From an uncultured Pseudomonadales bacterium (lineage in GTDB: Bacteria; Patescibacteriota; Microgenomatia; UBA1400): a stretch of 64,000 nt of DNA. The position numbers and the translations under genes are program-made. The notes beneath the pieces are model-generated. The model was not told the DNA's origin. It saw only the letters and a program-made list of their open reading frames with translations, and ran no database searches. Where the stretch lies: contig CAZPUR010000003.1 in assembly GCA_964589815.1 (NCBI GenBank), positions 42,554 through 106,553 on the forward strand. Direction: 5' to 3'. Of this stretch, positions 26,460 to 40,753 are shown one piece after another (positions within the stretch are counted from its first letter, which is position 1; every line of letters starts with the position of its first letter).

Positions 26460-26470
26460 AATATCTAAAT

Positions 26471-26493
26471 CCCCCCGACGTAACATCGGGGGG
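26471..26493 (+). repeat. GC hairpin CCCCCCGA-CGTAACA-TCGGGGGG overlapping the rpsJ SD
   Basis: 8-bp stem. The 3' arm runs into GGAG, 9 nt before the ATG at 26505. Inverted relative at 32112-32129. Confidence 0.75.
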
Positions 26494-26504
26494 AGCACTT
26501 TCAA

Positions 26505-26813
26505 ATGGCAAAACAGAGGATTAGGGTCAAATTAAAAGCTTTTGATCACCGGATTATCGATGAATGTTGTCAGAAAATATTACAGACGGCTTTATCTACC
26601 GGAGCTAAAGTTATTGGGCCAGTGCCTTTACCCACAAGGAGAAAGACGATTACAGTGACCACTAGTCCACACACTGATAAAGATGCCCGAGAGCATTTTC
26701 AGATTCTAACTCATAAACGGTTGATTGATATTATCCAGCCGACGGATAAAACAATTGATAGTTTAATGCATTTGGAATTGCCGGCGGGAGTCGGGATTGA
26801 AATTAAGATGTGA
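26505..26813 (+). CDS. rpsJ: 30S ribosomal protein S10 (uS10)
   Basis: [17 protein letters not shown] ... [16 protein letters not shown] family pattern. Confidence 0.95.
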
Positions 26814-26833
26814 TAAATTAAACACTCAAAATT

Positions 26834-26859
26834 TGGCCCGGTTTAAGGGCCATTTTTTT
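26834..26859 (+). terminator. intrinsic-terminator-like hairpin between rpsJ and rplC (TGGCCC-N7-GGGCCA + T7)
   Basis: 6-bp GC stem followed directly by seven T. Confidence 0.55.
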
Positions 26860-26892
26860 AGAGAGTTTATAGTGTCGTTACGGAGCGAATTT

Positions 26893-26950
26893 GTCATTCT
26901 GGAGCGAAGCGATAGAATCCCTTGGGATCCTTTGCTGTGCTCAGGATGAT
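26893..26950 (+). repeat. head-to-head pair of GTCATYCTG-type repeats forming one long hairpin
   Basis: GTCATTCTGGAGCGAAGCGATAGAATCCC / GGGATCCTTTGCTGTGCTCAGGATGAT. Arm differences are mostly T-versus-C (G.U in the sense RNA). The 3' arm covers the ATG at 26946. Confidence 0.75.
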
Positions 26951-26960
26951 TAATCATTCC

Positions 26961-27521
26961 ATGATTAATCAATTTTATGGATTTAAGATAGACCAACAAC
27001 AAACCTTTAATAATGAGGACAAGCGGTTAGTGGTGACCAAAATTAAAGTAGAGCCTTTAGAAGTCAAGCGGGTGAAAAATGAGGCTAAAGATGGCTATTG
27101 GGCTTTACAAGTTAAGGTGGGTAAGTTTCTCAGAGAGTTAAGATTAAATGAAGAACTTAAAATCAAGCCAGGAGAAAAAATCAATCCTGGCTCGGTTTTT
27201 AAAAAAGCTGATCGAGTTCAAGTAAAAGGCATAACTAAAGGCAGAGGTTTTGCAGGCGTGGTTAAACGCTGGGGTTTTCATGGAGGACCTAAAACCCATG
27301 GACAGTCTGATAGAGCGAGAGCTCCGGGTTCAATTGGTCAAGGAACTAGCCCGGGTCGGGTTTGGAAAGGCAAAAAAATGCCCGGCCATATGGGGAATAA
27401 ACCTAAAACTATTAAAGGCCTTAAGGTTTTTAAAATAGATGAAGATAAAGGCGAACTTTGGTTGGCTGGAGTAGTTCCAGGCAATAAAGGAGGACTACTC
27501 AAAATTAGCAAAATAGGCTAA
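26961..27521 (+). CDS. rplC: 50S ribosomal protein L3 (uL3)
   Basis: KGRGFAGVVKRWGFHGGPKTHGQSDRARAPGSIG motif. Start set at ATG 26961 by alignment logic to L3 N-termini; 26946 is possible. The caller's TTG at 26922 lies in the hairpin. Confidence 0.9.
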   Translation: MINQFYGFKIDQQQTFNNEDKRLVVTKIKVEPLEVKRVKNEAKDGYWALQVKVGKFLRELRLNEELKIKPGEKINPGSVFKKADRVQVKGITKGRGFAGVVKRWGFHGGPKTHGQSDRARAPGSIGQGTSPGRVWKGKKMPGHMGNKPKTIKGLKVFKIDEDKGELWLAGVVPGNKGGLLKISKIG

Positions 27522-27626
27522 TTTTGAGTAATAGCCAAATAATCCAATAAACGAATACTCAAATACTCAAAAAAATAATTTGTTTATTGGAAATATTGGA
27601 AATATTAGTTTATTTGAGTATTAATT
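27522..27626 (+). repeat. rplC-rplD spacer module with reciprocal TTTGAGTA / TACTCAAA and CCAATAAAC / GTTTATTGG complements
   Basis: TTTGAGTA at 27523 and 27613; TACTCAAA at 27555 and 27564; 9-bp complement 27544-52 / 27581-89. TATTGGAAA x2. Confidence 0.65.
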
Positions 27627-28262
27627 ATGCAAATTGATGTTATTAGTATCAGCGGCAGAAAATTAAGCCAGATGACCATTCCGGCAGAGATTTTTAATGC
27701 CAAAATTAATAATGTCTTAATGGTTCAGGCGGCTCGTGTTTTTTCAAGCAATCAACGCCAAAGTCCAGCCAAGACCAAAAGACGGGGAGAAATTAATCTT
27801 TCTGGTAGAAAAATTTACCGCCAGAAAGGTACAGGTCGGGCCAGACACGGAGACAAAAAGCCCGGCATTTTTGTTAAAGGTGCTAAAGCCCATGGTCCGA
27901 CCGGCGAGCAGAATTTTAAACTCAAAATAAGCAAAAAAATGAGAAGATTAGCCTTATACAGCGCCTTAAGTTATAAATTTAAAGAGAAAGAAGTAATGGT
28001 GATGAGCGGATTAGATAAAATTGAACCTAAAACCAAACAAATGACTAAAGTTATTAATCATCTAATCAATAAATCCCGCAAATTCACTTTTGTATTGCCA
28101 TCTAAATTGGAAAATGTAATTCGGGCAGGAAGAAATATAGCCGGAGTAAATTTAATCCAGGCAAGACAGCTAAACGCTTATCAGGTTTTAAATGCTGGCC
28201 AATTAGTTTTTATGAAAGAAAGTATTGAAGTTTTAAAAGACACGTTTATTAAGAAAAGATGA
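27627..28262 (+). CDS. rplD: 50S ribosomal protein L4 (uL4)
   Basis: RQKGTGRARHG motif; operon position. Confidence 0.95.
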   Translation: MQIDVISISGRKLSQMTIPAEIFNAKINNVLMVQAARVFSSNQRQSPAKTKRRGEINLSGRKIYRQKGTGRARHGDKKPGIFVKGAKAHGPTGEQNFKLKISKKMRRLALYSALSYKFKEKEVMVMSGLDKIEPKTKQMTKVINHLINKSRKFTFVLPSKLENVIRAGRNIAGVNLIQARQLNAYQVLNAGQLVFMKESIEVLKDTFIKKR

Positions 28263-28609
28263 ATATCAATCAAGTTATTAAAAAACCACTAATTACAGAA
28301 AAAGCGATGGCGTTAGCTAAGGAGGGTAAGTATACTTTTATAGTTGATATCAAGGCTGATAAAAAAAAGGTTAAACAAGCCCTAGGAGTTTTATTTGGCG
28401 TTCAGGCAATTAAGGTTAATCTTTTAAAATATAAGGGAAAGAAAAAAAGAGCTTTTCGAATGCGCAAATTGATTAAAAAATCAGATTATAAAAAAGCAAT
28501 AGTGCAACTGAAAGAGGGTCAAAAAATAGAATTTTTTGAAGAAATTTCTGGAAAGAAGAAGGATAAATCCCGGCGCAAAGGCCGAGGATCGTCCTCTGGA
28601 CGAAAATGA
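28259..28609 (+). CDS. rplW: 50S ribosomal protein L23 (uL23)
   Basis: [11 protein letters not shown] start. ATGA overlaps on both sides. Confidence 0.93.
28587..28605 (+). repeat. GATCGTCCTCTGGACGAAA hairpin element forming the rplW tail and abutting the rplB ATG
   Basis: TCGTCC-TCT-GGACGA stem. Same core as 44211-44230 and 55047-55066. Confidence 0.7.
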
Positions 28610-29442
28610 AGGATTTTAAAATTTACAAACCAGTGACTGCCGGCAGAAGAAACCGGCTGGATCTTGTCAGTCGAGCCTTAAAAGTGAAGCCAGAGAAAAA
28701 ATTACTGGAAATTTTACCTAAAAGGTCAGGTCGAAACAATGCCGGTAAAATAACCGTTAGACATCAAGGTGGTCGGCAAAAAAGATTTTTGAGAAAAATT
28801 GATTTTAAACGCGAAAAACGTGGAATTTCCGCTAAAGTGTTCAGTATTGAATACGATCCTAACCGCTCAGCTAACATTGCCTTGATAGTTTATGAAGATG
28901 GAGAAAAAAGCTATATTCTGGCGCCTAAAGGACTAAAAATTGGAGCGAAAATTGAGACTGGTAAAAATGCTGATTTAAAGATAGGCAATGCCCTGCCTTT
29001 GAGAAAAATCCCTTTAGGAATGCCGATTCATAATTTGGAATTAAGCCCGGGTAAAGGGGCTCAGATAGTCAGAGGAGCCGGCACCGCCGCCCTGATCCAG
29101 TCAAAAGAAAAAAATTATGCCAGCGTCAAGCTACCTTCAGGAGAATTAAGGAAAATAAGCCTTGATTGTATGGCTACTTTGGGACAGATAGGCAATATTC
29201 ATGTTAAAGATGTATCTTTAGGTAAAGCTGGTAGAAAAAGACATCGAGGTATTAGACCATCAGTTCGGGGAGTAGCCATGCATCCTGGAGCTCATCCTCA
29301 TGGAGGCGGTGAAGGTCGGTCTGGTATAGGTATGCCCTCACCTAAGTCGCCTTGGGGTAAAAGGACTTTGGGAAAGAAAACCAGGAAAAAGAAGAAATAC
29401 TCTGATAAATATATTCTTAGAGACAGGAGAAAAAAATTATGA
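28606..29442 (+). CDS. rplB: 50S ribosomal protein L2 (uL2)
   Basis: [17 protein letters not shown] motif. Confidence 0.97.
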
Positions 29443-29723
29443 GCCGTTCATCTAAAAAAGGACCATATATTGACCAAAAACTTTTGAAAAAAGTTATGGC
29501 CCAGAAAAACTTAGCTAAAAAAGAACCGATTAAAACTTGGGCGAGAGCTTCTCAGATCCCACCTGAATTTGTTGGTCATAGTTTTAAAGTCCATAATGGC
29601 AGGACTTTTATCGAAGTTTTTATTAATGAAGCTATGGTTGGCCATCGTTTAGGAGAATTTGCTCCTACTCGAACCTTTAGGGGTCATGGTAAAGTGGTCA
29701 AAAGGGTAATAACTAAAACATAA
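29439..29723 (+). CDS. rpsS: 30S ribosomal protein S19 (uS19)
   Basis: [11 protein letters not shown] ... HNGRTF ... [11 protein letters not shown]. Confidence 0.96.
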
Positions 29724-29730
29724 AGGAGAA

Positions 29731-29834
29731 TTGTTACATTGTTACATTGTTACATTGTTGATAGTTTTTTGTAATACAAATCGGAAGGCTACTGTTAGCA
29801 ATGAAGCAATGAAGCAATGAAGCAATGAAGCAAT
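29731..29834 (+). repeat. foldback spacer: (TTGTTACA)x3 + TTGTTGAT on the 5' arm, (GCAATGAA)x4 on the 3' arm
   Basis: Units pair in register (per 8 nt: 6 Watson-Crick, 1 G.U, 1 A.A). Helix base at 29731/29833. Confidence 0.8.
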
Positions 29835-30221
29835 TTGTTAATTAAGGCGGAACAAAAATACGTTAGAATAAGCCCTCAAAAAATGAGGTTGGTGGCGACT
29901 GCGGTTAAAAACCTTGTTCCTGAAGAAGCTTTAGACAAATTAAAATTTTTAAATAAAAGAGCCGCCCAGCCTTTGGCTAAAGTTATTAAGCAGGCCTTGG
30001 CCAATGCAACCAATAATTTTAAATTAAAAAAAGAAAGCTTAAAATTTAAAAGTATTCAAATAAGAAAAGGATCAACTTATAAACGATGGAGATCAGTTTC
30101 TCGGGGTAGAGCCCATTCAATATTTAAAAGAACGAGTCATATCAGGGTGATATTGGAGAGCAAAGAGCGAAACGAAAAGAGCAAAGATGCAGATCAAATA
30201 TCAAAAAGAAAAGGCAAATAA
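29835..30221 (+). CDS. rplV: 50S ribosomal protein L22 (uL22), TTG start
   Basis: (M)LIKAEQKYVRISPQKMRLVA matches the L22 N-terminus. The TTG is the end of the last degenerate repeat unit. Confidence 0.92.
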   Translation: MLIKAEQKYVRISPQKMRLVATAVKNLVPEEALDKLKFLNKRAAQPLAKVIKQALANATNNFKLKKESLKFKSIQIRKGSTYKRWRSVSRGRAHSIFKRTSHIRVILESKERNEKSKDADQISKRKGK

Positions 30222-30222
30222 T

Positions 30223-30354
30223 GGAATTACAAATCACAAGCACCAAATATCAAATAAATTCAAAGCACCAAATTAAAAATTCTAAACGTTTTGAATTTAA
30301 AAATTTTAATTTGAATATTGTTTGGAGTTTGGAGTTTGGAGTTTGGAGTTTTCC
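30223..30354 (+). repeat. foldback spacer, ACCAAAT/ATTTGGT family copy C1, with (TTTGGAG)x4
   Basis: GGAATT..(A)GTTTTCC closing pairs, AAATTCAAA/TTTGAATTT core. Shares AATTACAAATCACAA (15 nt) with 33910-33924. Confidence 0.7.
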
Positions 30355-30371
30355 GACAGAAGGGAGGCAAT

Positions 30372-31028
30372 TTGGGTCAAAAAATTCACCCTTTCGGTTT
30401 TCGGTTGGGTAAACTTTACTCTTGGAAATCAAGATGGTTTGCCCAAAAACAGAATTACCAAAAGTTTTTATTAGAGGATTTTAATTTAAGAAAGTTTCTG
30501 GAAGACAAGCTCCAATTGGCGGGTTTGGTTAGAGCAGAAATTGAGCGTTCAATTAATACTATTAAGATTATTCTTTATGTTTCTCGTCCGGGAGTGGTTA
30601 TTGGTCGAGGCGGTTCCGGTCTGGAAACCTTGAAAAAAGAAATTAATAAAAAATTAAAAATTGATCCCAAAGACCCCAAGCAACTAAAAGTTGATTTGGA
30701 AGTCAGAGAGGTAAAAAATCCCGAGCTTTCAGCCCGATTAATAGCTCAAAGGATAGCCTTTCAGCTTAAAAAAAGGTATCCTCATCGTCGAGCGGTGGCT
30801 CAGGCAATGGAAAGAGTTATGGCCGCTGGTGCTAAAGGAGTAAAAATTGTTCTCGCTGGCCGAATCGCTGGCGCGGAAATTTCTAGAACAGAAAAGTATT
30901 CTAAAGGAAGGGTGCCTTTGCAAACCTTAAGAGCAGACATTGATTATGCTCAAATGCCAAGCCTGACCAAATCTGGCTATATTGGCATAAAAATTTGGAT
31001 TTATAAAGGAGAAGAAGAAGTTAAGTAA
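30372..31028 (+). CDS. rpsC: 30S ribosomal protein S3 (uS3), TTG start
   Basis: (M)GQKIHPFGFRLG is the canonical S3 N-terminus. SD GGGAGG sits 5 nt upstream. The caller's upstream extension is repeat-encoded. Confidence 0.93.
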   Translation: MGQKIHPFGFRLGKLYSWKSRWFAQKQNYQKFLLEDFNLRKFLEDKLQLAGLVRAEIERSINTIKIILYVSRPGVVIGRGGSGLETLKKEINKKLKIDPKDPKQLKVDLEVREVKNPELSARLIAQRIAFQLKKRYPHRRAVAQAMERVMAAGAKGVKIVLAGRIAGAEISRTEKYSKGRVPLQTLRADIDYAQMPSLTKSGYIGIKIWIYKGEEEVK

Positions 31029-31068
31029 AAGTTGACTATCAATAAACAACTTAATCAACTAAAAAACA
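31029..31068 (+). repeat. short copy (3' part) of the TTAAGTAGTTGATTA...CTATCAATAAACAACTTAATCAACTAAAAAACA family
   Basis: 31035-31068 is identical over 34 nt to 33058-33091 and ends at the rplP ATG. Confidence 0.8.
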
Positions 31069-31479
31069 ATGTTACAGCCAAAAAAATTAAAATACCGAAA
31101 GCATTTTCGTGGCACTAGAGCAGGAATAGCCACGGCCGGTAACGCTTTAGAGTTTGGTGAATATGGACTTAAAAGCTTAGGTAGGGGCTGGTTGAAAAGT
31201 GCTCAAATTGAGGCGGCTAGGAAAACAATAGCTCATTATACCAAAAGACAGGCTAAGCTTTGGATTAGAGTTTTTCCTGACAAAACTTATACCCAGAAAT
31301 CAGCTGGGAGCAGAATGGGGCAAGGAAAAGGCGATTTGCAGGGTTATGTAGCCGTAGTCAAACCAGGCCGGATTATTTTTGAGTTGGCAGGGGTAGAAAA
31401 AGAAATTGCCCAGGAAGCCATTAGACGGGCTGGTGCCAAATTACCTTTTAAAACGCGGTTTATAGAAAGAGAGCAGTAG
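31069..31479 (+). CDS. rplP: 50S ribosomal protein L16 (uL16)
   Basis: [15 protein letters not shown] start. Confidence 0.96.
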
Positions 31480-31502
31480 ACAAACGTTATTGAATATAAA
31501 AT

Positions 31503-31718
31503 ATGGCTAAAAAATCAAAAGCAGATAACAAGCTTGAATTACAAAAGCTCTCAATTCCCGAGCTTAACAAGTTGTTAAGACAAAGTCAGACAGAATGGCT
31601 AAAGCTAAAATTGGAACTGAAAACAGGTAAATTAAAAAACCTTCATCAGTCCAGACAAAAAAGAAAAGAGATTGCTCGGATTAAAACAATTATTAGAGAA
31701 AAGGAATTAGTAAAATAG
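31503..31718 (+). CDS. rpmC: 50S ribosomal protein L29 (uL29)
   Basis: Size, position and the [20 protein letters not shown] pattern. Confidence 0.88.
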
Positions 31719-31797
31719 AAATAAGTTCAAAAGTTCATTAAGTTCATAGAGTTAATAGTAAAAAATTACTCATAACTTGTTGAGCTCATAACTAATT
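31719..31797 (+). repeat. foldback spacer, GTTCATTAAGTTCAT family copy A1
   Basis: Alignable to 34454-34547 and 41368-41463. Ends ...ATAACTAATT directly at the rpsQ GTG. Confidence 0.75.
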
Positions 31798-32025
31798 GTG
31801 AAACAATTAACCGGTACAGTTGTCAGCATTAAGATGCAAAAAAGTGCGGTGGTCAAAGTTGACAGAACCTACCGTCATCCTTTATATAAAAAAACCATTA
31901 AAAAAAGTAAAAAATATTTAGTTGATAATCAACTTAAGGTTAAAAAAGGAGATAAAGTGATTATTCAAGAGTGCCGGCCAATAAGTAAGAGTAAGAGGTT
32001 TAGAATCATTAGAGTTATTAAGTAG
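31798..32025 (+). CDS. rpsQ: 30S ribosomal protein S17 (uS17), GTG start
   Basis: LTGTVVSIKMQKSAVVKVDRTYRHPLYKK pattern. Confidence 0.93.
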   Translation: MKQLTGTVVSIKMQKSAVVKVDRTYRHPLYKKTIKKSKKYLVDNQLKVKKGDKVIIQECRPISKSKRFRIIRVIK

Positions 32026-32173
32026 TGTATTAAGTAGTTGATTAGGTCCGACGCGATGGTCGGACCGTTAACTGATAGTTAACTGATAGTTTCTACCCAG
32101 TCAACGCGAGTCCTGACGTTACGTCGGGGCGAGCTAGTTAACCATAAATTAACTACTTAATTGACTATAAACG
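32026..32173 (+). repeat. foldback spacer, TTAAGTAGTTGATTA family copy with nested GC hairpins
   Basis: ATTAAGTAGTT (32030-40) is complementary to AACTACTTAAT near 32147-57. Nested GGTCCGAC-N6-GTCGGACC (32045-66) and CCTGACGTTACGTCGGGG (32112-29). (TTAACTGATAG)x2. Confidence 0.7.
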
Positions 32174-32548
32174 ATGATCCAATTACACACCATTTTAAAA
32201 CCAGCAGATAATTCTGGCGCCAAACGTTTAAGGGTGATTCATATCCATGGCGGCTCAACCCGCCCTTTTGGTTCTATTGGTGATATTACTACTTGTGCGG
32301 TTGACCAGGCTGATCCGCAGGGAATAGTTAAAGACTCACAATTGGTTAAAGTGGTTATCGTTAGAACCAAAAAAGAGATTAGAAGACCAGATGGTTCTTA
32401 TATTCGTTTTGATGATAATGCGGGTGTGGTGATCGAGAGTTTAAAAAATAAAGTGCCGGTGGGAACAAGAATTTTTGGTCCTATTGCCAGAGAGATAAAA
32501 GATTTAGGTTATAGCAAGATTGTTTCTATGGCATCGGAGGTGTTGTGA
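32174..32548 (+). CDS. rplN: 50S ribosomal protein L14 (uL14)
   Basis: [19 protein letters not shown] start. Confidence 0.96.
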
Positions 32549-32567
32549 TTCAAAGAATCACAACACC
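32539..32567 (+). repeat. perfect 13-bp hairpin (GGTGTTGTGATTC-AAA-GAATCACAACACC) containing the rplN stop codon
   Basis: Read directly. TGA at 32546-48 lies in the 5' arm. Confidence 0.8.
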
Positions 32568-32601
32568 CTGACCCCGTATTTATGCGGGAGAAGGATCTCA
32601 A

Positions 32602-32940
32602 ATGAAAAAGAATAAGCCAATTAGATTGAAAATGAAAATCCGCAAAGGAAATACTGTTAAAGTTATGGCTGGAAAAGATAAAGGTAAAACCGGCAAGGTG
32701 GAAAAAGTTTTACCTAAAGTTGCTGCAGTCTTAGTAGAAGGAGTTAATAAGTATAAAAAACATCTTAAACCCCAGGGTGAAGGTAAACCTGGTGGTATTG
32801 TAGAGATAAGTAAACCTTTACCTGTGGCTAATGTGGTTTTGCTCTGTCCCAAGTGCCAAAAACCAACCCGTGTGGGTTACCAAACAGACAGGAGTAATAA
32901 AAAATATAGAATTTGTAAAAAATGCAAGGAGGCAATATAA
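32602..32940 (+). CDS. rplX: 50S ribosomal protein L24 (uL24), with C-terminal CxxC..CxxC zinc-ribbon-like tail
   Basis: KGNTVKVMAGKDKGKTGKV KOW motif. Tail CPKCQKPTRVGYQTDRSNKKYRICKKC. Confidence 0.92.
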   Translation: MKKNKPIRLKMKIRKGNTVKVMAGKDKGKTGKVEKVLPKVAAVLVEGVNKYKKHLKPQGEGKPGGIVEISKPLPVANVVLLCPKCQKPTRVGYQTDRSNKKYRICKKCKEAI

Positions 32941-33091
32941 GTGTTAATTAAGTAGTTGATTAACTCGTTAACGCTCGTGTTAATTAGGTAGTTAATTAAC
33001 TAGTTTAATATAGTCCTATCAATCAACATGATCCGCCAGCTGGCGGAGAATAAATTAACTATCAATAAACAACTTAATCAACTAAAAAACA
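32941..33091 (+). repeat. foldback spacer, TTAAGTAGTTGATTA family, full copy
   Basis: 33015-33089 is identical over 75 nt to 41177-41251. TAGTTGATTA (32952-61) pairs with TAATCAACTA (33075-84). Carries palindrome TCCGCCAGCTGGCGGA (33032-47). Confidence 0.85.
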
Positions 33092-33646
33092 ATGAGTCGT
33101 TTACAACAAAAATACCAAAAAGAAATTGTTCCGGAGTTAAAAAAGGAATTTAAGATTAAAAATGATCTGGCTGTGCCTAAGGTAGCAAAAGTGGTACTTA
33201 ATGTGGGGATTGGCGAAATCGCTCATGATAAACAGGCTTTGGAAAAAGCCAAAAATACTTTAGCGGCCATTACCGGTCAGAAACCTTTAATTCGTCCGGC
33301 CAAAAAAGCAATTGCTGATTTTAAGATTAGAAAAGGCAATTCAGTCGGTCTTAAAGTAACTTTAAGAAGGAAAAGAATGTATGATTTTTTAGATAAACTA
33401 TTCTCTTTGGTTTTACCCTTGGTGCGTGATTTTCAGGGAGCTAAGCAGAATGCCTTTGATCAAGATGCCAATTATACCTTAGGCTTAAAAGAGCAGGTTA
33501 TTTTTCCTGAGGTGGACTATGATAAAATTGACAAGGTTCGAGGGATGGAGATTAGTATTGTTATCTCGACTAAAGACAAGAAAAAAGCAGCTAGATTGTT
33601 AGAATTAATGGGAATGCCGTTTACTAAGGAGGAATTAGGAAATTAG
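33092..33646 (+). CDS. rplE: 50S ribosomal protein L5 (uL5)
   Basis: SRLQQKYQKEIVPELKKEF start and the NVGIGE region. Confidence 0.95.
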   Translation: MSRLQQKYQKEIVPELKKEFKIKNDLAVPKVAKVVLNVGIGEIAHDKQALEKAKNTLAAITGQKPLIRPAKKAIADFKIRKGNSVGLKVTLRRKRMYDFLDKLFSLVLPLVRDFQGAKQNAFDQDANYTLGLKEQVIFPEVDYDKIDKVRGMEISIVISTKDKKKAARLLELMGMPFTKEELGN

Positions 33647-33653
33647 GATAAAA

Positions 33654-33705
33654 GTGATTAGTCAAAAAAAGACTAATCACTAATCACTAATCACTAATCA
33701 CTAAA
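33654..33705 (+). repeat. 10-bp perfect hairpin (GTGATTAGTC-A7-GACTAATCAC) followed by (TAATCAC)x4
   Basis: The heptamer array 33674-33701 places TAA in all three frames just before the S14 start position. Confidence 0.8.
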
Positions 33706-33891
33706 ATCGCTAAAGTTTCTAAATTTGCTAAACAGCAAAAAAAACCAAAATTTTCTAGCCGGAAGCACAACCGCTGTAAAATTTGCGGTCGACCCAGGGC
33801 CTATATTAGGCTTTTTGGCCTTTGCCGTTTATGTTTTCGTCAAATGGCCCATAAAGGAGAATTACCAGGGGTAACTAAAGCCAGCTGGTAA
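33706..33891 (+). CDS. rpsZ: 30S ribosomal protein S14 type Z (uS14), apparent ATC start
   Basis: Absent from the ORF track. Own translation: (I)[60 protein letters not shown]. 61 codons, CxxC..CxxC, collinear with Zn-type S14. No ATG/GTG/TTG in frame after the stop at 33688-90. Confidence 0.85.
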
Positions 33892-34034
33892 GCTTTAAAG
33901 AAATGACCAAATTACAAATCACAAATTCCAAACAATATCAAAACACCAAATTCAAAATCCAAAACTGTTTTGAATTTGAATATTTGAATTTAGGATTTAT
34001 TTGTCATTTGGTATTTGGTGCTTGGAATTTAAGC
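33892..34034 (+). repeat. foldback spacer, ACCAAAT/ATTTGGT family copy C2
   Basis: Base pairs GCTT/AAGC (33892-95 / 34031-34), ACCAAAT/ATTTGGT (33906-12 / 34013-19), and further pairing along the arms by manual tracing. Confidence 0.75.
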
Positions 34035-34054
34035 ATTAGTGAACGGAGTGAACA

Positions 34055-34453
34055 ATGCTGACAGATCCTATTGCTGATATGTTAATCAGAATCAAAAATG
34101 CCTGCTTGGCTAAGAAAAACCAGGCAGTACTGCCTTATTCTAAAATCAAAGAAAAAATCGCTAAAATTTTTCTTAGTCAAGGCTATCTTAATCAGGTTAA
34201 AAAAGAAAGCTTAAAGAATAAACAAGGAGAGGTTTTGATTTGTGACTTAAAGTATGAAAAAAACAGTTCAGTTATAAGAAACATACAAAGGGTTTCCAAA
34301 CCAGGGATGAGGGTTTATTTATCTTGGAAAAAATTACCCAGGCCTAGTTTTGGTATGGGGATAAGTATTATTTCTACCTCTAAAGGGTTAATGACCAATG
34401 CTGAGGCAATTAAGAAGAGACTAGGAGGAGAAGTAGTCTGTAAAATTTGGTAA
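34055..34453 (+). CDS. rpsH: 30S ribosomal protein S8 (uS8)
   Basis: MLTDPIADMLIRIKNA start. Confidence 0.96.
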   Translation: MLTDPIADMLIRIKNACLAKKNQAVLPYSKIKEKIAKIFLSQGYLNQVKKESLKNKQGEVLICDLKYEKNSSVIRNIQRVSKPGMRVYLSWKKLPRPSFGMGISIISTSKGLMTNAEAIKKRLGGEVVCKIW

Positions 34454-34547
34454 ATAAAGAGAAATAAGAAAAGAGTTCATTAAGTTCATGGAGTTAATAG
34501 TAAAAAAAATTACTCATAACTCATAACTTGTTGAACTAATAACTAAT
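34454..34547 (+). repeat. foldback spacer, GTTCATTAAGTTCAT family copy A2
   Basis: GAGTTAAT/ATTACTC top stem and GTTCAT units opposite ATAAC units. Ends ...ATAACTAATT at the rplF TTG. Confidence 0.75.
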
Positions 34548-35102
34548 TTGTCTAAAGTTGGAAAGCAACCTATTAAAATACCCGAAGGAGTAACGGTTGA
34601 GATTAAACCTAGTCAAGTGATCGTTAGTGGTCCCAGGGGAAGTTTGACTCAGGAAATCAGGTCGGAGATAAAAGTTGAAAAAAAGGAAAACCAGATTTTA
34701 GTTCAACCAAACTCGCAAAGTAAACTGGTTAAGTCTTTACACGGTTTACTAAGAAGCCTGATTGCCAACATGATTCAGGGAGTGACTAAAGGTTTTGAAA
34801 AAACTTTAGAACTACAGGGAGTCGGCTACCGCGTCAATTTAGAACAGGAAAATTTAACCTTAGCTTTAGGTTTTTCTCATCCGGTAGTAGTTAAACCACC
34901 TGAAGGAATTAAATTTCAGGTAGAAGGCAATAATTTGATTAGAGTTTTAGGTATTGATAAACAATTAGTTGGTCAGATAGCCGCTGGAATTAGAAGGATT
35001 AGACCGCCGGACAGCTACAAAGGCAAAGGCATAAGATACGAGGGTGAAGTGATTAAGTTAAAGCCTGGCAAGGCGGCCAAGACAGAAGCAGCCGCAACAT
35101 AA
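34548..35102 (+). CDS. rplF: 50S ribosomal protein L6 (uL6), TTG start
   Basis: (M)SKVGKQPIKIPEGV is the canonical L6 N-terminus. Confidence 0.95.
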   Translation: MSKVGKQPIKIPEGVTVEIKPSQVIVSGPRGSLTQEIRSEIKVEKKENQILVQPNSQSKLVKSLHGLLRSLIANMIQGVTKGFEKTLELQGVGYRVNLEQENLTLALGFSHPVVVKPPEGIKFQVEGNNLIRVLGIDKQLVGQIAAGIRRIRPPDSYKGKGIRYEGEVIKLKPGKAAKTEAAAT

Positions 35103-35114
35103 GGAGTCTAAATA

Positions 35115-35528
35115 ATGATTAAACGTTACAAGCATAAAACGCTTAAAAGAAAAATCAAGATCAGGGCCAAACTTTTGAAAATAGGTCGAAGACCCAGGTT
35201 ATCTGTTTTTCGTTCTAATAAATATATTTATGCCCAGATTATTGATGACCAAAAAGGAAAAACACTGGCGGCGGCTAGTGAAAAAGACATAAAAGAAAAC
35301 TCCAATCCGCCAGCTGGCGGACCAAAACTCCCCCGACCTCGCCTCGGCTCGGCCGAGGGCGGGCAAAACTCCAAGATTAACAGAGCGTTTCAGGTGGGTC
35401 AAATCTTGGCCAAGAAAGCCTTAAAAATAAAGATTAAAAAAGTATATTTTGACCGCGGCGGCTATAAATATCATGGCCTGATTAAAGCCTTAGCTGAGGG
35501 TGCCAGAAAAGGAGGACTGGAGTTCTAA
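35115..35528 (+). CDS. rplR: 50S ribosomal protein L18 (uL18) with a 23-codon GC-rich insertion
   Basis: RLSVFRSNKYIYAQIIDD and GGYKYHG motifs. Insertion NPPAGGPKLPRPRLGSAEGGQNS. Confidence 0.93.
   Translation: MIKRYKHKTLKRKIKIRAKLLKIGRRPRLSVFRSNKYIYAQIIDDQKGKTLAAASEKDIKENSNPPAGGPKLPRPRLGSAEGGQNSKINRAFQVGQILAKKALKIKIKKVYFDRGGYKYHGLIKALAEGARKGGLEF
35295..35371 (+). repeat. two adjacent GC palindromes, each bounded by the 8-nt direct repeat AAAACTCC (three copies)
   Basis: AAAACTCC at 35295, 35323 and 35364. Cores TCCGCCAGCTGGCGGA (35305-20) and CCCGACCTCGCCTCGGCTCGGCCGAGGGCGGG. Periods 28 + 41 = 69 nt. Confidence 0.85.
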
Positions 35529-35582
35529 TCCGCCAGCCTCGCTGAGCGGGGCCAGCTGGCAGACTAATTCCTAATTTCTAAA

Positions 35583-36071
35583 ATGCAAAGACAGAGACAG
35601 AGAGAATTTGATAATAAGCAATTCTGGGGCAAGAAGGAATTTGAAGAAAAGGTAGTTCAAGTTAAAAGAGTTTCAAAGAAAACTAAAGGCGGTAATCAAA
35701 TTAGATTTACAGCTTTGGTAGTAGCAGGGAATAAAAAGGGGAAGGTAGGCGTGGGCTTAGGTAAAGCCCCAGATGTTCTATCAGCCATTCAAAAAGGCAC
35801 CCGTTTAGCCAAAAAAAATCTGATTAATGTTCCTATACAAGCAGGAACCATCAGCCATGATGTTTATGTTAAAAGGGGGGCGGCTAAAGTTTTATTAAGG
35901 TCTGCGCCCGAGGGTACGGGTGTGATTGCTGGCGGGCCGGTAAGATATGTAGTTGAGGCAGCTGGAGTGAGGAATATTGTTTCTAAAATTTTAGGCACCA
36001 AAAATAAAGCTAGCAATATTTATGCCACTATAGAGGCATTGAAGCAGTTAAAGAGGAGAAAGGATAAATGA
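35583..36071 (+). CDS. rpsE: 30S ribosomal protein S5 (uS5)
   Basis: VVQVKRVSKKTKGGNQIRFTALVVAGN pattern. Confidence 0.95.
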   Translation: MQRQRQREFDNKQFWGKKEFEEKVVQVKRVSKKTKGGNQIRFTALVVAGNKKGKVGVGLGKAPDVLSAIQKGTRLAKKNLINVPIQAGTISHDVYVKRGAAKVLLRSAPEGTGVIAGGPVRYVVEAAGVRNIVSKILGTKNKASNIYATIEALKQLKRRKDK

Positions 36072-36700
36072 AACTCAACAAACTATCCCAAACAACCAAA
36101 ACAACCAAAAAAAGAGTTGGCCGCGGTTATGGTTCAGGCAAGGGCGGTCATACAGCTGGTCGAGGCCAGAAAGGCCAAAAATCACGAAGTAAAGTAGGCT
36201 TGCTTTTTGAAGGCACGAAAATGCGCAAGTCTTTAATCAGGCGTCTACCAATGCAGAGAGGCAAAGGTAAATTTAAGTCTTTTAAAAGCAAACCAATTAT
36301 TTTGAATGTTAAATATTTGAATCTTTTGAAAAGTGGGACTAAAGTAGATGTGGAAGTTTTAATTAAAGAAGGTTTGGTGGCCAAAGAAGCCTTAACCTTA
36401 GGAATGAAAATTCTAGGTGATGGGGTTTTAGAGAAGAAACTGACAGTAGTTTTGCCAGTTTCTCAGGGAGCCAAGAAAAAAATCGAAAAAGCTGGAGGCA
36501 AGGTGATAAACGCGAAAGACGCTAAAAAAAGAGAGGCGAAAAAACCTAAAATTCGTAAGCAGATTAAAAAATCACAAAAATCCTCAAAGACCAAAGAAAC
36601 CAGAACTACCCGAAAAAAACCAACCACAAAAACTAAAATAAAAAGAGGCAGTCCCGCCTTGACTCAGACTCGGCGAGGCAGGCAAAAAAAAACTAAATGA
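36068..36700 (+). CDS. rplO: 50S ribosomal protein L15 (uL15) with a long Lys-rich C-terminal extension
   Basis: [28 protein letters not shown] motif. Overlaps rpsE by 4 nt, so no rpmD between them. Confidence 0.93.
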
Positions 36701-37986
36701 ATCGCATTCTTCAGCCCATTATCAACGCCTTTAAGGTTTCCGAACTGAGAAAGAAAATTGTTTTTACCTTGCTAATGTTCATTGTTTTCAGGTTGACAGC
36801 CCATATTCCCGTTCCTGGAGTTGACCTGGAAGCTTTAAAAATGCTTTTTTCCCGTAATCAATTTTTAGGCCTTTTAGATATTTTCTCTGGCGGTACTTTA
36901 ACCAATTTTTCCATTATTGCCATCGGCCTTTCTCCCTATATTAACGCTTCCATTATTTTACAGCTTTTAACTATGGTTTTCCCCAAATTAGAAGAATTAA
37001 GTAAAGAGGGTGAATTAGGAAGAGAAAGAATTAATCAATACACTCGTTTTTTAACCATTCCTTTAGCTATTTTTCAGTCCGTGGGAATGATGGCGATTTT
37101 AAAAAAGCAGCAGATTTTTACCAGCTTAAATTTTCTCAATCTGGGTTTAATTGTGGTAACCATGACCAGCGGTTGTTTATTTTTAATGTGGTTAGGAGAA
37201 CTGATTACCCGTTATGGAATTGGTAACGGTATTTCTTTATTGATTTTTGGTGGGATTGTGGGTCGTCTACCGGTTTCTTTAGCGCAAACAGTTTCTTTAG
37301 TGGAAACAGTTAGTTTTTTTAATCTCTTGGTTTTTGTGGTTATGGCGATTGGGGTTATCGCCGCCATTTGTTTTGTCAATGAAGCCCAAAGGCAAATTAC
37401 AGTTTCTTATGCCCGCAGGGTTCAGGGCCGAAAGATGTATGGCGGTTCCAGTACTCATCTGCCTTTAAGAGTAAATCAAGCAGGAGTTATTCCTATTATT
37501 TTTGCTGTTTCTTTGGTCTTGATTCCCAATATGCTGGCCACTTGGTTGCAGACCTTGCCTAATCAAAAACTGGCCAATTTGGCCGTTTTTATGGCTCGGC
37601 TTTTTGATCCTCAAAGCCTTTTTTATAATCTTTTTTACTTTCTACTGGTAATTGCTTTTACTTATTTTTATACCGCCGTCACTTTTAATCCTGAAAAAAT
37701 CGCCGAAGAAATTAAAAAACATGGCGGTTTTATTCCAGGCATTAGACCCGGCAAACCTACGGCCGAGTACCTGAATTATATTTTAACCCGGATCACTTTG
37801 GCTGGCGCAGTTTTTTTAGGTCTGGTGGCGATTTTACCTTCTCTAGCCCGAGTTTTAACCGGCGTCACCACCATGATGATTGGCGGCACTGGTATTTTAA
37901 TCGTGGTTTCAGTCATTTTAGAAACCAGCAAATCTTTGGAAGCTCAACTTTTAATGAGAAATTATGATGGATTTTTAAAGGAGTAA
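36697..37986 (+). CDS. secY: preprotein translocase subunit SecY
   Basis: 429-aa polytopic protein with SecY motifs ([23 protein letters not shown]). Confidence 0.96.
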
Positions 37987-38136
37987 ATTTTCAATTTTCA
38001 AATCCCAATTTTCATTGAATTTTCAAATCCCAATTTTCAAACTGCATTTAAAAAGATCAAAAAAGTTTGAGAATTAAAAAATTGTAAATTAATTATTCAT
38101 TGTAAATTGAAAATTGTTAAATTGAAAATTAAAATT
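37986..38136 (+). repeat. foldback spacer between secY and adk with (ATTTTCAAATCCCAATTTTCA)x2
   Basis: 37986-38001 pairs with 38122-38136 (15 bp, one bulged C at 37992) by manual pairing. The helix base joins the last nt of the secY TAA to nt -1 of the adk ATG. Confidence 0.75.
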
Positions 38137-38727
38137 ATGTACATAATTTTCTACGGTCCTGAAGGTTCAGGTAAAACCACCCAGGCCAAATTGCTGGCCG
38201 AAAAATTAAACCTGCCTTATTTAGGTTCAGGCGATTTAGTCCGCCATTATGCTGCCCGGGATAAAGGCATTATGGGTGATGTTTGCCGCGAAGCCTTATC
38301 CATCGGCCATTATGTGCCTGATTCAGAAATGTTTGTTTTATGGAAACAGCGTTTAAAAGAGTCGGATGTCCAAAGTGGTTGGATTTTAGATGGTTTCCCG
38401 CGCAACGACACTCAAGCAGATTTTTTAGATGATAAATTAGATAAATATGGAAAAAAAGTAGATGCGGTTTTTTATATCAAAGTTAAGGAGAGTACTTCGA
38501 TTAAACGTCTGACCAAACGCGGCCGCCGCAATCCGGATGGCAGTTTACATGATGATCCTAAAAAAGTCCGGGAGAGACTGCGGATTTATAAAAAGGGCGA
38601 AAAGGGTGTTTTAGATTTATATAAGAAAAGAGGCGTCTTGTATGCTATTGATGGCGAGCCCAGCATTGAGCAGATTCACAAAGAGGTTTTACAGAGGGTA
38701 GAAAAACTGACTCTGGCGTCATCCTGA
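38137..38727 (+). CDS. adk: adenylate kinase
   Basis: MYIIFYGPEGSGKTTQAKLLAEKL P-loop start. The caller's TTG at 38107 lies in the repeat arm. Confidence 0.92.
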   Translation: MYIIFYGPEGSGKTTQAKLLAEKLNLPYLGSGDLVRHYAARDKGIMGDVCREALSIGHYVPDSEMFVLWKQRLKESDVQSGWILDGFPRNDTQADFLDDKLDKYGKKVDAVFYIKVKESTSIKRLTKRGRRNPDGSLHDDPKKVRERLRIYKKGEKGVLDLYKKRGVLYAIDGEPSIEQIHKEVLQRVEKLTLASS

Positions 38728-38743
38728 GCGCAGCGTAGGATCT
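38718..38743. repeat. GTCATCCTGAGCGCAGCGTAGGATCT repeat overlapping the adk stop codon
   Basis: The adk TGA (38725-27) is the TGA inside the GTCATCCTGA motif. Confidence 0.75.
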
Positions 38744-38745
38744 AT

Positions 38746-39444
38746 ATGAAAATTCTTAAAAAAAACTTACAAATCGCTATTGATGGATTAGTTGGCGCCG
38801 GCAAAAGTGTCGGCGCTCATCGTTTGGCCCAACGTTTAGGGATTTTGTATGTTTATACTGGCGCCATGTATCGGGCGACTGCTCTTTTAGGCATTCAAAA
38901 CAACACTGATCTTAAAGACGAAGCCAAACTTATAGCTTTGTTAAAAAAAAGCACCATTAAACTAATGCCTGCTTCCAAAAAAAGCCGGGTTTGCGATGTT
39001 TTTATTGACGCTAAGGACGTGACCGATGAACTCTTTTCTTCTCAAGTGAATTGGGGATCTTCAGTCGTAGGTCTTTTGCCCAGGGTAAGAAAATATTTGG
39101 TTAAACTTCAGCAGGAAATTGCTAAAGGTCAGGCAGTGGTCATGGAGGGCAGAGATATTACCACCGTAGTTTTGCCCCAAGCTGACCTCAAAATTTTTCT
39201 GACAGCTGAGCTTAAAATTAGAGCCAAAAGAAGACTTAAAGACTTGCGCCAAAGAGGAGAAAAAAAGACCTTAGAACAAGTGATTGAGGAAACAGTTAAA
39301 AGAGATTACCAAGATTCGCACCGTCAAGCTGATCCCCTAAGAATTGTCAAAGGCGCTTGGGTTTTAGACACTAGCAACCTTACCATTGATCAAGAAGTAG
39401 ATCTGATGATCAAACGCCTAAAAGCCAAGAAACTAGTTAGTTAG
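38746..39444 (+). CDS. cmk: cytidylate kinase
   Basis: IAIDGLVGAGKSVGAHRLAQRLG and GRDITTVV motifs. Confidence 0.9.
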   Translation: MKILKKNLQIAIDGLVGAGKSVGAHRLAQRLGILYVYTGAMYRATALLGIQNNTDLKDEAKLIALLKKSTIKLMPASKKSRVCDVFIDAKDVTDELFSSQVNWGSSVVGLLPRVRKYLVKLQQEIAKGQAVVMEGRDITTVVLPQADLKIFLTAELKIRAKRRLKDLRQRGEKKTLEQVIEETVKRDYQDSHRQADPLRIVKGAWVLDTSNLTIDQEVDLMIKRLKAKKLVS

Positions 39445-39445
39445 C

Positions 39446-40246
39446 ATGAAAATTCCTATAAAAACTCCTCAGCAAATTCAAATTATGAAGCAAGGTGGCT
39501 ATAAGCTGGGTCGGATTTTAGGTCAGCTAGTTAAAATGGCCCAGCCTGGAGTTAACCTTTTAGATATTGAAAAAAAAGCGATGGTTTTAATTAAAAAAAC
39601 TGGAGGAGAAGCTGGATTTGCCCGGGTACCTAATTATCATTGGGCCACTTGCCTTAATATTAATGAGGAAATTGTTCATGGTGTTCCTAAAGATTATTTA
39701 CTTAAAAGCGGTGATGTTTTAAATATAGACATTGGTTTATATTACCGAGGCTTTAATACAGATATGAGCAGTACCATTTATATAAAAAATCCTCGTCATC
39801 CTGAACTCGTTTCAAGATCTATAAAAAAATTCCTTTCTACTGGTAAAAAAGCTCTCCAAGAAGCTATCAAACAAGCTCAACCTGGCAATCGGGTCGGTCA
39901 TATTTCCCAAAAAATTCAAGAGATTATAGAAGGAGCTGGTTATTCTTGCGCCCGTACTCTTACTGGCCATGGAATTGGCAAACAATTGCATCAGCCGCCT
40001 TCGATTCCCTGTTTTCTTAGGGATTCAATAGAAGAAACGCCCATTTTAAAAGAAAAAATGGCTCTGGCAATTGAGGTGATTTATTGTCTGGGAAAACCAG
40101 AGTTAGTGATTGATCCTCAAGATAGATGGACAATTAGAACCAAAGATGGTCGGTTAACGGCAGTTTTTGAAAAAACTATCGCTGTAACTGAAAAAGGGCC
40201 AGTAATTATCACTCCGTTTGAGGGAAAAGAGTCCCATAATATTTAA
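39446..40246 (+). CDS. map: type I methionine aminopeptidase with a 13-codon repeat-derived insertion
   Basis: VHGVP, DIGLYYRGFNTDMS, GHGIG and AIEV metal-site motifs. Confidence 0.94.
   Translation: MKIPIKTPQQIQIMKQGGYKLGRILGQLVKMAQPGVNLLDIEKKAMVLIKKTGGEAGFARVPNYHWATCLNINEEIVHGVPKDYLLKSGDVLNIDIGLYYRGFNTDMSSTIYIKNPRHPELVSRSIKKFLSTGKKALQEAIKQAQPGNRVGHISQKIQEIIEGAGYSCARTLTGHGIGKQLHQPPSIPCFLRDSIEETPILKEKMALAIEVIYCLGKPELVIDPQDRWTIRTKDGRLTAVFEKTIAVTEKGPVIITPFEGKESHNI
39781..39830 (+). repeat. GTCATCCTGAACTCGTTTCAAGATC element flanked by the direct repeat TATAAAAAA, in-frame in map
   Basis: Direct repeats at 39781-89 and 39820-28, period 39 nt. Encodes NPRHPELVSRSIK. Confidence 0.85.
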
Positions 40247-40283
40247 CAGAAGGTAGAGTTGGGATATAATATATTTTATTATT

Positions 40284-40454
40284 ATGGAAGAAAAGATAAA
40301 AATAAGGAGTTCCCTTACTCTTCATGCTCCAGAAGGTAACGTAAAAACAGTTCCTATAAGAGAAGGGGGTTTAAAATGGTTGGCCCAAGCAGCTGATAAG
40401 AGGATGCAAAGATTGCGTGATGAGGGGGCAACTCCTGAAAGCAATCCTTTTTAG
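40284..40454 (+). CDS. hypothetical 56-aa protein (possibly the 5' part of a frameshifted gene)
   Basis: Own translation MEEKIKIRSSLTLHAPEGNVKTVPIREGGLKWLAQAADKRMQRLRDEGATPESNPF. TATAAT at 40265-70 upstream. Below the ORF-track size cutoff. Confidence 0.4.
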   Translation: MEEKIKIRSSLTLHAPEGNVKTVPIREGGLKWLAQAADKRMQRLRDEGATPESNPF

Positions 40455-40498
40455 AAGATTTAAATAGCCTTATACATGTAAGTGGGCAGCCGTTTCCT

Positions 40499-40753
40499 TT
40501 GGAACCACTTGAACCCTCAGGGGAAGAGATATTTGTAGAGAAAGCAGTAAATATTGTTGGTGAAGTAATGGCAGTAATAGAATCAGTTGATGATTCAACT
40601 CTTCCTAAATGGCAAAGAGCGCTTTTAAAAACACCAGAAGGAGAAGAGCAACTTCGAGACTTAAAAATTCAGGCTTTTGACCAGATGGCTAGTTTAATTA
40701 GAGAGGGTCTTGGGCTTAGTGAAGGAGAGAGTATTTTGGAGCTGTTGGATTAA
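40499..40753 (+). CDS. hypothetical acidic 84-aa protein (frame is open upstream to 40443)
   Basis: ORF-track entry with a TTG start and no SD. Its frame is the -1 frame of ORF 40284..40454 and opens 12 nt before that ORF's stop. Confidence 0.4.
   Translation: MEPLEPSGEEIFVEKAVNIVGEVMAVIESVDDSTLPKWQRALLKTPEGEEQLRDLKIQAFDQMASLIREGLGLSEGESILELLD

Follow-up and report, generated by a model that had tools for sequence, protein, structure and literature searches.

Hairpin-forming repeat spacers between the genes of a Patescibacteria ribosomal-protein cluster

Repeated spacers at four stop-to-start junctions

The stretch of DNA analyzed here (the window) comprises 64,000 nt from an uncultured member of the Patescibacteriota (Microgenomatia; UBA1400), and coordinates are positions within that window unless a related contig is named. 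It carries a ribosomal-protein gene cluster in which four junctions, S3/L16, S17/L14, L24/L5, and IF1/L36, are each occupied from the stop codon of one gene to the start codon of the next by a copy of a repeated, hairpin-forming spacer, designated family A. The flanking genes were identified by Pfam as S3, L16, S17, L14, L24, L5, IF-1, and L36, in agreement with the names given in an initial annotation of this DNA, and the sequence relationships claimed there were examined by direct reading, repeat finding, and blastn. Three copies are full-length and fill the stop-to-ATG space (148, 151, and 134 nt), and the fourth is minimal. Minimum free energies (MFE) and z scores refer to predicted RNA folds.

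32941-33091, forward strand: full family A copy, 151 nt, from the rplX (L24) stop to the rplE (L5) ATG; MFE -34.1, z -5.2
32953-32963/33074-33084, 32987-32997/33053-33063, and 33032-33047, forward strand: outer helix, inner helix, and GC palindrome of the L24/L5 copy
41120-41253, forward strand: full family A copy, 134 nt, from the infA (IF-1) stop to the rpmJ (L36) ATG; MFE -31.8, z -3.9; GC palindrome at 41194-41209
32026-32173, forward strand: diverged full family A copy, 148 nt, from the rpsQ (S17) stop to the rplN (L14) ATG; MFE -56.3, z -5.9; nhmmer E 1.8e-35
32029-32043/32147-32161, 32045-32066, and ~32110-32130, forward strand: outer helix and two GC hairpins of the S17/L14 copy
31029-31068, forward strand: minimal or partial family A copy, 40 nt, from the rpsC (S3) stop to the rplP (L16) ATG; from 31035 on, identical to the last 34 nt of the L24/L5 copy

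The initial annotation reported 75 identical nucleotides shared by two of these spacers (33015-33089 and 41177-41251). The match is exact and its true extent is 76 nt (33014-33089 and 41176-41251, 76 of 76), with the palindrome TCCGCCAGCTGGCGGA located inside the block in both copies, at 33032-33047 and 41194-41209. The further likenesses described there also hold. The 5' parts of the L24/L5 and IF1/L36 copies are 90% identical across ~50 nt, the copy at 41120 lacking 18 nt of the 5' half (TTAACTAGTTTAATATAG); positions 31035-31068, before rplP, equal 33058-33091 at 34 of 34 nt, a likeness that covers the full 40-nt S3/L16 spacer with 2 mismatches; and 32026-32173, before rplN, carries the same 5' motif (TTAAGTAGTTGATTA, 32030-32044) and a complementary 3' motif (AATTAACTACTTAAT, 32147-32161). 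The 5' motif does overlap or follow the upstream stop codon as stated, but the AAGTAA/AAGTAG at S3, S17, and IF-1 is the native Lys-stop gene end, present in relatives too, and was not inserted. Matches to a 24-nt degenerate 3' block fall at exactly the four family A sites, with 0.01 expected by chance.

Divergence between the two most similar copies is not uniform, with no differences in 76 nt compared to 5 substitutions in the adjacent 50 nt (P ~0.01 by our own arithmetic). This contrast indicates that the 76-nt block, as read from the two copies, was recently copied or homogenized. Transposition and gene conversion fit the data equally well as the copying route.

Predicted fold of family A

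RNA folding of the three full copies predicts a common multi-branch architecture (z -5.9, -5.2, and -3.9) in which the 5' and 3' motifs form an outer helix of 11-15 bp. This helix encloses a first hairpin and a second, inner helix, which in turn encloses a GC-rich hairpin. The first outer pair lies 3-12 nt past the stop codon and the last 7-12 nt ahead of the ATG, and the A-rich tail and start codon are unpaired in the predicted fold of the full copies. The arms TAGTTGATTAA and TTAATCAACTA are complementary (32953-63 with 33074-84) and are kept in three of three full copies, reaching 15 bp in the S17/L14 copy, which adopts the same architecture with different hairpin sequences. The pairing of 5' and 3' arms proposed in the initial annotation is thus backed both by folding (z -3.9 to -5.9) and by an 11-bp outer helix in three full copies. 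When the copies are aligned, 11 of 11 outer pairs are kept, and each of the four changes that affect one side of a pair yields a sense-strand G-U pair; this conservation is suggestive only, as the alignment holds three copies, two of them near-identical, and covers no more than the outer helix with a portion of the GC hairpin. The inner 5' arm (32970-32996) repeats the outer 5' arm (32934-32960) in direct orientation, indicating that the element is nested and modular. The minimal S3/L16 copy forms a weak stem whose 5' arm consists of the last S3 codons (GTTAAGT).

Strand asymmetry in folding, as given by G-U pairs, was used to distinguish an RNA-level from a DNA-level palindrome; mirrored-structure energies were discarded, as they mis-score non-canonical pairs. 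Among family A, the S17/L14 copy alone is more stable as sense RNA, and the L24/L5 and IF1/L36 copies are neutral.

One reading of the shared block assigns it to a leader-peptide upstream open reading frame (ORF), with ATG codons at 33028 and 41190, that extends, in a different frame, into the downstream gene and regulates its translation. An ATG-initiated ORF of 41 codons is indeed present (33028-33153), and a 28-codon counterpart at 41190 shares its first 21 codons. The shared codons, however, are merely the identical DNA block, no Shine-Dalgarno (SD)-like motif lies 5' of the ATG, the ATG sits in an internal loop beside the GC hairpin, and the S17/L14 and S3/L16 copies contain no such ORF. 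A leader peptide is accordingly a highly improbable account of the repeat.

Empty junctions and turnover in related genomes

The nearest named proteins are from Candidatus Beckwithbacteria (L5 identity 74%), the nearest sequence of any kind has 83% L5 identity, and GTDB representatives, which are Patescibacteria metagenome-assembled genomes, reach at most 65%. Every junction was tabulated in 12 related Patescibacteria ribosomal-protein clusters with L5 identities of 55-83%. At S3/L16, S17/L14, L24/L5, and IF1/L36, 32 of the 34 available junctions in these relatives are overlapping or no longer than 17 nt (-19 to +17), typically as ATGA or TAATG; the two exceptions hold unrelated spacers of 54 and 59 nt. 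The protein termini that flank the junctions are conserved, as in L24, which ends ...RICKKCKEAI* both in the window and in the related cluster L084. The absence of family A at orthologous junctions together with the conserved protein ends shows, by comparison of these clusters, that the copies are clean, lineage-specific insertions between stop and start. The initial annotation had asked whether relatives have empty rplX/rplE and infA/rpmJ junctions, and no family A element occurs at either in the 12 relatives. It had also attributed the high identity to recent transposition, gene conversion, or strong functional constraint. The sites without the element bear out insertion and the 76-nt block bears out recent copying or homogenization; long-term constraint is not supported, since the nearest relative (83% L5) has no element.

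Most of the 12 relatives are compact in the cluster. In the two exceptions, L006 and L085, other junctions are occupied, and by other hairpin families. L006 has a hairpin family (TTAGAGTTTTAGATAG...CTAAAACTCT) at four junctions (6705-6795, 7080-7195, 8290-8378, and 9595-9680 of that contig), one copy of which contains an extra nested GC palindrome, CCTGCCTGCCGGCAGGCAGG, that its three sister copies lack, and a related copy lies at S3/L16 in L085 (8279-8369). The family A GC palindrome TCCGCCAGCTGGCGGA is likewise present in L006. L5/S14 in the window carries a (TAATCAC)n hairpin module that L085 has at L22/S3 and that both L006 and L087 have at secY/adk, and a TAGTTGATTAAG... arm motif follows the L13 stop in the relative L089. 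This behavior fits small mobile or copy-prone palindromes undergoing turnover rather than a conserved regulatory RNA.

In E. coli, S8 represses the spc operon at a position before rplE. The L24/L5 copy likewise lies before rplE, which brings to mind a ribosomal-protein autoregulatory leader or another described structured RNA or ribozyme. Against this stand the Rfam searches, which returned no match at the gathering score across the whole window and none at E<=1 across 26400-41600, the occurrence of the same sequence before the unrelated genes rplE, rpmJ, and rplP, and its absence in relatives. This explanation, the least probable of those considered, is essentially refuted.

Reliability of the assembled repeat

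Two near-identical spacers 8 kb apart could in principle be a product of collapsed or chimeric reads, the outcome that the initial annotation had named as its refutation. Sample 3300031551 provides an independent JGI contig (L001) that matches the window at 100% identity over 11,888 nt and includes both 76-nt copies with their unique flanks, so that both copies stand in unique surroundings on one contig in two assemblies. The L24/L5 copy appears again on a contig (L003) from a further sample, making three samples including that of the window. A 1.2-kb contig from another sample (L002, Ga0307443_1058073) joins infA, by way of the IF1/L36 copy's 5' half and then the shared block, to rplE. This contig is either a chimera induced by the repeat or the point at which the 8.2-kb rplE-infA segment is tandemly duplicated or closed into a circle. 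The join of infA to rplE via the repeat shows that assemblers, or true recombination, can pass from one copy to the other and is the one point in favor of an artifact. With the repeat recovered in two further samples besides L001, and with a diverged third copy and a 34-nt partial copy in existence, the repeat is, on these contigs, reproducible and not a one-off assembly product, and the probability that its identity is artifactual is very small. Short-read assemblies also tend to break at these spacers: L001 starts inside a spacer of a second family (family B, at 31759), and L003 starts 8 nt 5' of a family A copy (32933).

Distribution and sequence signals

No further family A or B copies were found by nhmmer at maximum sensitivity on both strands of the rest of the window, 90 other fetched loci, and 3.9 kb past the window end. 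A metagenome scan with the 24-nt 3' block returned four loci, none from the source samples, which evidently lie outside that collection, as even L001-L003, with their exact matches, were not recovered; two of the four come from a related candidate phyla radiation (CPR) genome with the motif in the L13/S9 spacer, and two look like chance. No promoter (-35/-10) or terminator consensus was detected within 31029-31068, 32026-32173, 32941-33091, or 41120-41253, and the family A GC hairpins are trailed by GAATAAA, not by a T-run. GTAG occurs in both the outer and inner 5' arms (32955-58 and 32988-91), the arms themselves not being palindromic repetitive extragenic palindromes (REPs). An integron attC site was considered and rejected: the R''/R' cores (RYYYAAC/GTTRRRY) are absent, by eye only, and the genes keep the ancestral ribosomal order. 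The literature yielded no account of elements of this kind in CPR/Patescibacteria.

Other hairpin spacers in the cluster

The initial annotation observed the family A repeat correctly but overlooked the other hairpin families that, together with it, occupy half of the junctions in the cluster. Between rpsJ and rplQ there are 30 junctions, of which about 15 hold hairpin-folding spacers of 40-163 nt. Family B comprises three copies (L29/S17, S8/L6, and L36/S13), family E comprises two homologous spacers of ~155 nt each (L22/S3 and S14/S8), and unique hairpins occur at S10/L3, L3/L4, S19/L22, L5/S14, and secY/adk, their arms often built of tandem 7-8-nt units.

31719-31797, forward strand: family B, L29-S17 spacer; ends ...TAACTAATT right at the GTG start
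34454-34547, forward strand: family B, S8-L6 spacer; z -5.4; ends ...TAACTAAT right at the TTG start
41368-41463, forward strand: family B, L36-S13 spacer; z -4.8; ends ...TAACTAAT right at the TTG start
30222-30374, forward strand: family E, L22-S3 spacer; arms of short tandem units including (GGAGTTTG)x4; -38.0 kcal/mol sense versus -24.1 kcal/mol antisense
33892-34054, forward strand: family E second copy, S14-S8 spacer; homologous to the L22/S3 copy
29724-29834, forward strand: unique long hairpin, S19-L22 spacer; octamer tandem-repeat arms with 9 G-U pairs; MFE -36.7 kcal/mol sense, -15.4 kcal/mol antisense
33647-33708, forward strand: hairpin with (TAATCAC)x4, L5-S14 spacer; module also at other junctions in L085, L006, and L087

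All three family B copies end in ...TAACTAAT(T) abutting a TTG or GTG start, whereas most relatives use ATG for these genes, which suggests that the cassette supplies or reshapes the downstream start codon. A bias toward sense-strand stability is clear for S19/L22, L22/S3, and S10/L3, as it is for the S17/L14 family A copy. The 52-residue ORF listed at 33903-34061, within the S14/S8 family E copy, is spurious.

Several gene starts and one structure in the cluster merit separate mention. For S3, the TTG at 30372 is the real start codon, and an SD-like GGGAGG precedes it. The rpsN (S14) gene has no in-frame ATG, GTG, or TTG past the preceding stop (33647-33711); by homology to L085 (TTG GCT AAA GTC...), its apparent start is ATC (AAA ATC GCT AAA GTT), immediately after the (TAATCAC)x4 module. 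The S10/L3 spacer (26814-26921) combines a GC stem (26834-26852) with TTTTTTT and resembles an intrinsic terminator or attenuator within the S10 operon; the S10/L3 junction of L085 has a comparable structure.

GC mini-palindromes and in-frame insertions

Related GC palindromes are found inside a coding sequence of the cluster and elsewhere in the window.

35306-35321, forward strand: 16-nt GC palindrome TCCGCCAGCTGGCGGA within the rplR (L18) coding sequence; identical to the family A palindrome

This palindrome belongs to a 20-amino acid in-frame insertion in L18 (NPPAGGPKLPRPRLGSAEGG, 35300-35358) built from TCCGCCAGCTGGCGGA and CCTCGGCTCGGCCGAGG. The insertion is absent in L085, L086, and L087, and L084 has a shorter one of ~9 amino acids at the same position. 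A different GC mini-hairpin, TCGTCCTYTGGACGA, occurs three times (28589-28603, 44199-44232, and 55034-55067), each shortly 5' of a start codon (rplB, rplM, and the recA region), and is paired with CAGCCARAGGCTG at two of the three sites. The first copy lies in an extended C-terminal tail of L23, which has 116 amino acids compared to 97-101 in relatives; near the second, rplM really starts at the ATG at 44231 rather than at the TTG at 44222. GC palindromes similar to CCTGCCTGCCGGCAGGCAGG are present at 673-690, 52644-52664, and 58504-58521.

Translational context

The initial annotation described the 3' end of the spacers as an SD-less, A-rich start context. The description is accurate but not distinctive, as an SD-like motif precedes only 22 of the 63 other window genes, compared with 2 of the 14 element-preceded genes (P = 0.2). 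An SD-less leader was therefore dropped as a special feature of the elements, such starts being the norm in this genome.

Two other candidate functions were rejected. In two copies the TAAgTAGtTGAtTAA 5' motif, a three-frame stop of maximal density, terminates every frame within 11-16 nt, and stop triplets are more numerous in family A than in shuffled sequences (18 versus 9, 20 versus 12, and 14 versus 9.5). A role as a three-frame stop cassette fails nonetheless, because the motif is lost in the IF1/L36 copy and the family E, S19/L22, and other spacers are not enriched, some never closing all frames. A split ribosome-binding site of the T4 gene 38/25 type would require a suitably placed SD at the upstream gene end; none is present at the S17, IF-1, and S3 ends, and L24, the only gene to end in AAGGAGG, would have it at least 25 nt from the ATG even across the helix.

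Origin and possible function

On balance, family A probably represents small, non-autonomous palindromic insertion elements, comparable to MITEs (miniature transposable elements with inverted repeats), Correia elements, or REPINs, in one Microgenomatia/Beckwithbacteria-like CPR lineage. The properties that recommend this interpretation are shown at the level of sequence: family A copies are insertions, repeated in one orientation, with inverted-repeat ends, a modular nested build, and grouping into within-genome families. The elements would have entered an ancestrally compact ribosomal-protein cluster exactly between a stop and the next start and would be co-transcribed with the operon. In the transcript, the outer helix is predicted to close the RNA on itself, so that only ~10-25 unpaired nt would separate stop from start, with the ATG and its A-rich leader single-stranded. 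Self-folding of the RNA may be what allows such insertions to be tolerated in gene pairs that are essential and ancestrally overlapped (ATGA/TAATG). The downstream gene would then be translated by de novo initiation on the unstructured, SD-less leader, and coupling may add to this if the terminating ribosome opens the outer helix (models reviewed in PMC12548453). Copies may spread by copy-and-paste, through a trans-acting transposase or recombination, and may be homogenized by gene conversion.

Several observations weigh against an origin as insertion elements. The four A, three B, and two E copies all share one orientation and all lie inside the ribosomal-protein cluster, with none in the other ~50 kb examined (68 kb searched); clustering of the seven A and B copies compared with random junction sets of the same size has P ~0.002 by our own arithmetic. 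This restriction is unlike that of typical dispersed MITEs and fits either strong selective filtering or a function tied to the operon. No transposase or REP-associated tyrosine transposase (RAYT) was found among the 30 non-ribosomal window proteins scanned with Pfam. The borders of all family A copies are TAA/TAG (the stop codon) on the left and ...AC-TA(A/T)-AAA on the right, but TA occurs everywhere in such AT-rich DNA and the borders can be drawn in more than one way, such that TA/TAA at both borders cannot be demonstrated to be a target-site duplication. Across 13 genomes and all junctions from rpsJ to rplQ, non-ATG starts follow 16 of 46 spacers of at least 50 nt compared to 19 of 215 short ones (Fisher P = 2.6e-5, based on automated start calls that were not individually curated), a roughly fivefold enrichment that a purely passive element would not predict. 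Finally, the greater predicted stability of the sister spacers S19/L22 and L22/S3 as sense than as antisense RNA suggests selection on the RNA fold after insertion.

The short repeats within the arms raise the alternative that the spacers arose locally, without a mobile step, by expansion of 7-11-nt units through slippage and inverted duplication, with RecA-dependent gene conversion generating the apparent families. The arms do consist of tandem short units, namely (CATTGTTA)n, (TAATCAC)4, (GGAGTTTG)4, and (GTTAACTGATA)2; the native S17 3' codons ATTAAGTAG recur 3 nt downstream as the element start, S3 codons serve as the 5' arm of the S3/L16 stem, the identity of the two copies is tract-like over 76 nt, and recA is encoded in the window. 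Local origin leaves unexplained, however, how junctions with unrelated flanks, 0.9-8 kb from one another, first came by 130-150 nt of similar sequence, how the same modules came to occupy different junctions in genomes only 60-78% identical in L5, and how an identical GC palindrome came to lie inside a coding sequence. We consider it unlikely.

The placement of the cassettes invites a functional reading, the chief rival to insertion elements, in which selection maintains them as cis-acting RNA devices that may have been domesticated from mobile hairpins. Such a device could be (a) a coupling bridge, in which the outer helix juxtaposes stop and start and terminating ribosomes re-initiate across 134-151 nt, or (b) processing or stability punctuation, in which cuts by RNase III or RNase Y split a long operon mRNA into units that each have a stability of their own. 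An orientation common to all copies, a fit exactly from stop to start, and confinement to the ribosomal-protein cluster would all be expected of a device, as would the non-ATG starts after long spacers and the G-U-rich helices of the sister spacers, stable only on the sense strand. The helix begins 3-12 nt past the stop, so a ribosome at the stop must open it, and the ancestral junctions were overlapping and hence coupled, a relationship that normally decays within tens of nucleotides (PMC12548453). For processing, RNase Y is encoded at 56897-58435, and Correia hairpins are RNase III substrates (PMC2649163). The elements are nevertheless absent in the closest relatives, which manage with overlapping genes, so any function is recent and dispensable; the occupied junctions differ between genomes, two of the three full family A copies lack a sense-strand bias, and structure just 3' of a stop tends to lower coupling in E. 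coli screens (PMC12548453). A selected RNA device is thus possible but doubtful. Its most far-reaching form is more speculative still and would have to be called a long shot: the cassettes would constitute an undescribed coupling device whose fold takes 80-150 nt off the ribosome path and hands the terminating ribosome to an SD-less, often non-AUG start, much like ribosome shunting but in bacteria; mobile palindromes would have been domesticated to this end and would have spread in some CPR lineages through their ribosomal-protein operons.

Significance

Few bacterial gene arrays are as conserved and as densely packed as the ribosomal-protein operons. The overlapping genes of the relatives (ATGA/TAATG) represent an arrangement that supports translational coupling and matched protein amounts, and here half of the junctions have been opened by self-folding cassettes of 40-160 nt in a reduced genome, with gene order and protein ends intact. 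If family A and its sisters are insertion elements, small palindromic repeats can colonize even the ribosomal-protein locus, and the RNA fold, or SD-free translation, would make such insertions survivable. The series of filled and empty junctions across families and genomes offers natural material for study of the reach of coupling or of operon mRNA processing, and the coupling-bridge reading, if true, would be of high interest. On a practical level, the repeats break or mis-join short-read assemblies inside marker genes used for CPR phylogeny and binning.

Comparison with known systems

Hairpin-dependent coupling, known from f1 genes VII/IX and rpmI-rplT (PMC12548453), resembles the family A arrangement in that an inter-cistron hairpin is opened by the upstream ribosome, linking expression of the two genes. 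The known cases span -4 to +52 nt and involve conserved, gene-specific structures that mask the ribosome-binding site. The window elements, by contrast, are repeated cassettes of 134-151 nt that leave the start codon unpaired, and are known here from sequence and predicted folds.

The palindromic elements of Rickettsia (RPEs; PMC10969869, PMC1166351) are palindromic repeats of a reduced genome that are found in-frame in coding genes as well as between genes. The likeness here concerns the GC mini-palindrome only, in that the 16-nt palindrome of family A occurs in-frame in L18, adding 20 amino acids, and related mini-hairpins occur in the L23 tail. RPE units measure 100-150 nt, whereas the in-frame pieces in the window measure 16-57 nt, and no gene was seen to contain the AT-rich family A element itself.

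REP/REPIN-RAYT systems (PMC3116915, PMC3337134) consist of short extragenic palindromes arranged as inverted pairs that yield a long hairpin, REPINs being hairpin-forming doublets (PMC3116915). Like family A, they are non-autonomous and form near-identical families within a genome, and the GTAG tetranucleotide is present in both versions of the 5' arm here (AAGTAGTT and AGGTAGTT). The window elements differ in having extra GC hairpins between the arms and in being tied to stop-start junctions, and no RAYT was seen in the 64 kb.

Correia elements of Neisseria (Correia/CREE/NEMIS; PMC2649163, PMC2229807) are similar in size (~100-155 nt) and carry terminal inverted repeats that give a long RNA hairpin upon co-transcription. 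They, too, often lie between co-transcribed genes, and their presence or absence varies among related genomes. Co-transcribed Correia elements are bound or cut by RNase III (PMC2649163), an RNA-level effect on expression of the neighboring gene. They also possess 26-bp terminal inverted repeats, a TA duplication, and an integration host factor (IHF) site, can create promoters, and are dispersed in hundreds of copies in both orientations. The window elements have arms of 11-15 bp and no demonstrable target-site duplication, promoter, or IHF site, share a single orientation, abut stop and start codons, and are confined to the ribosomal-protein cluster.

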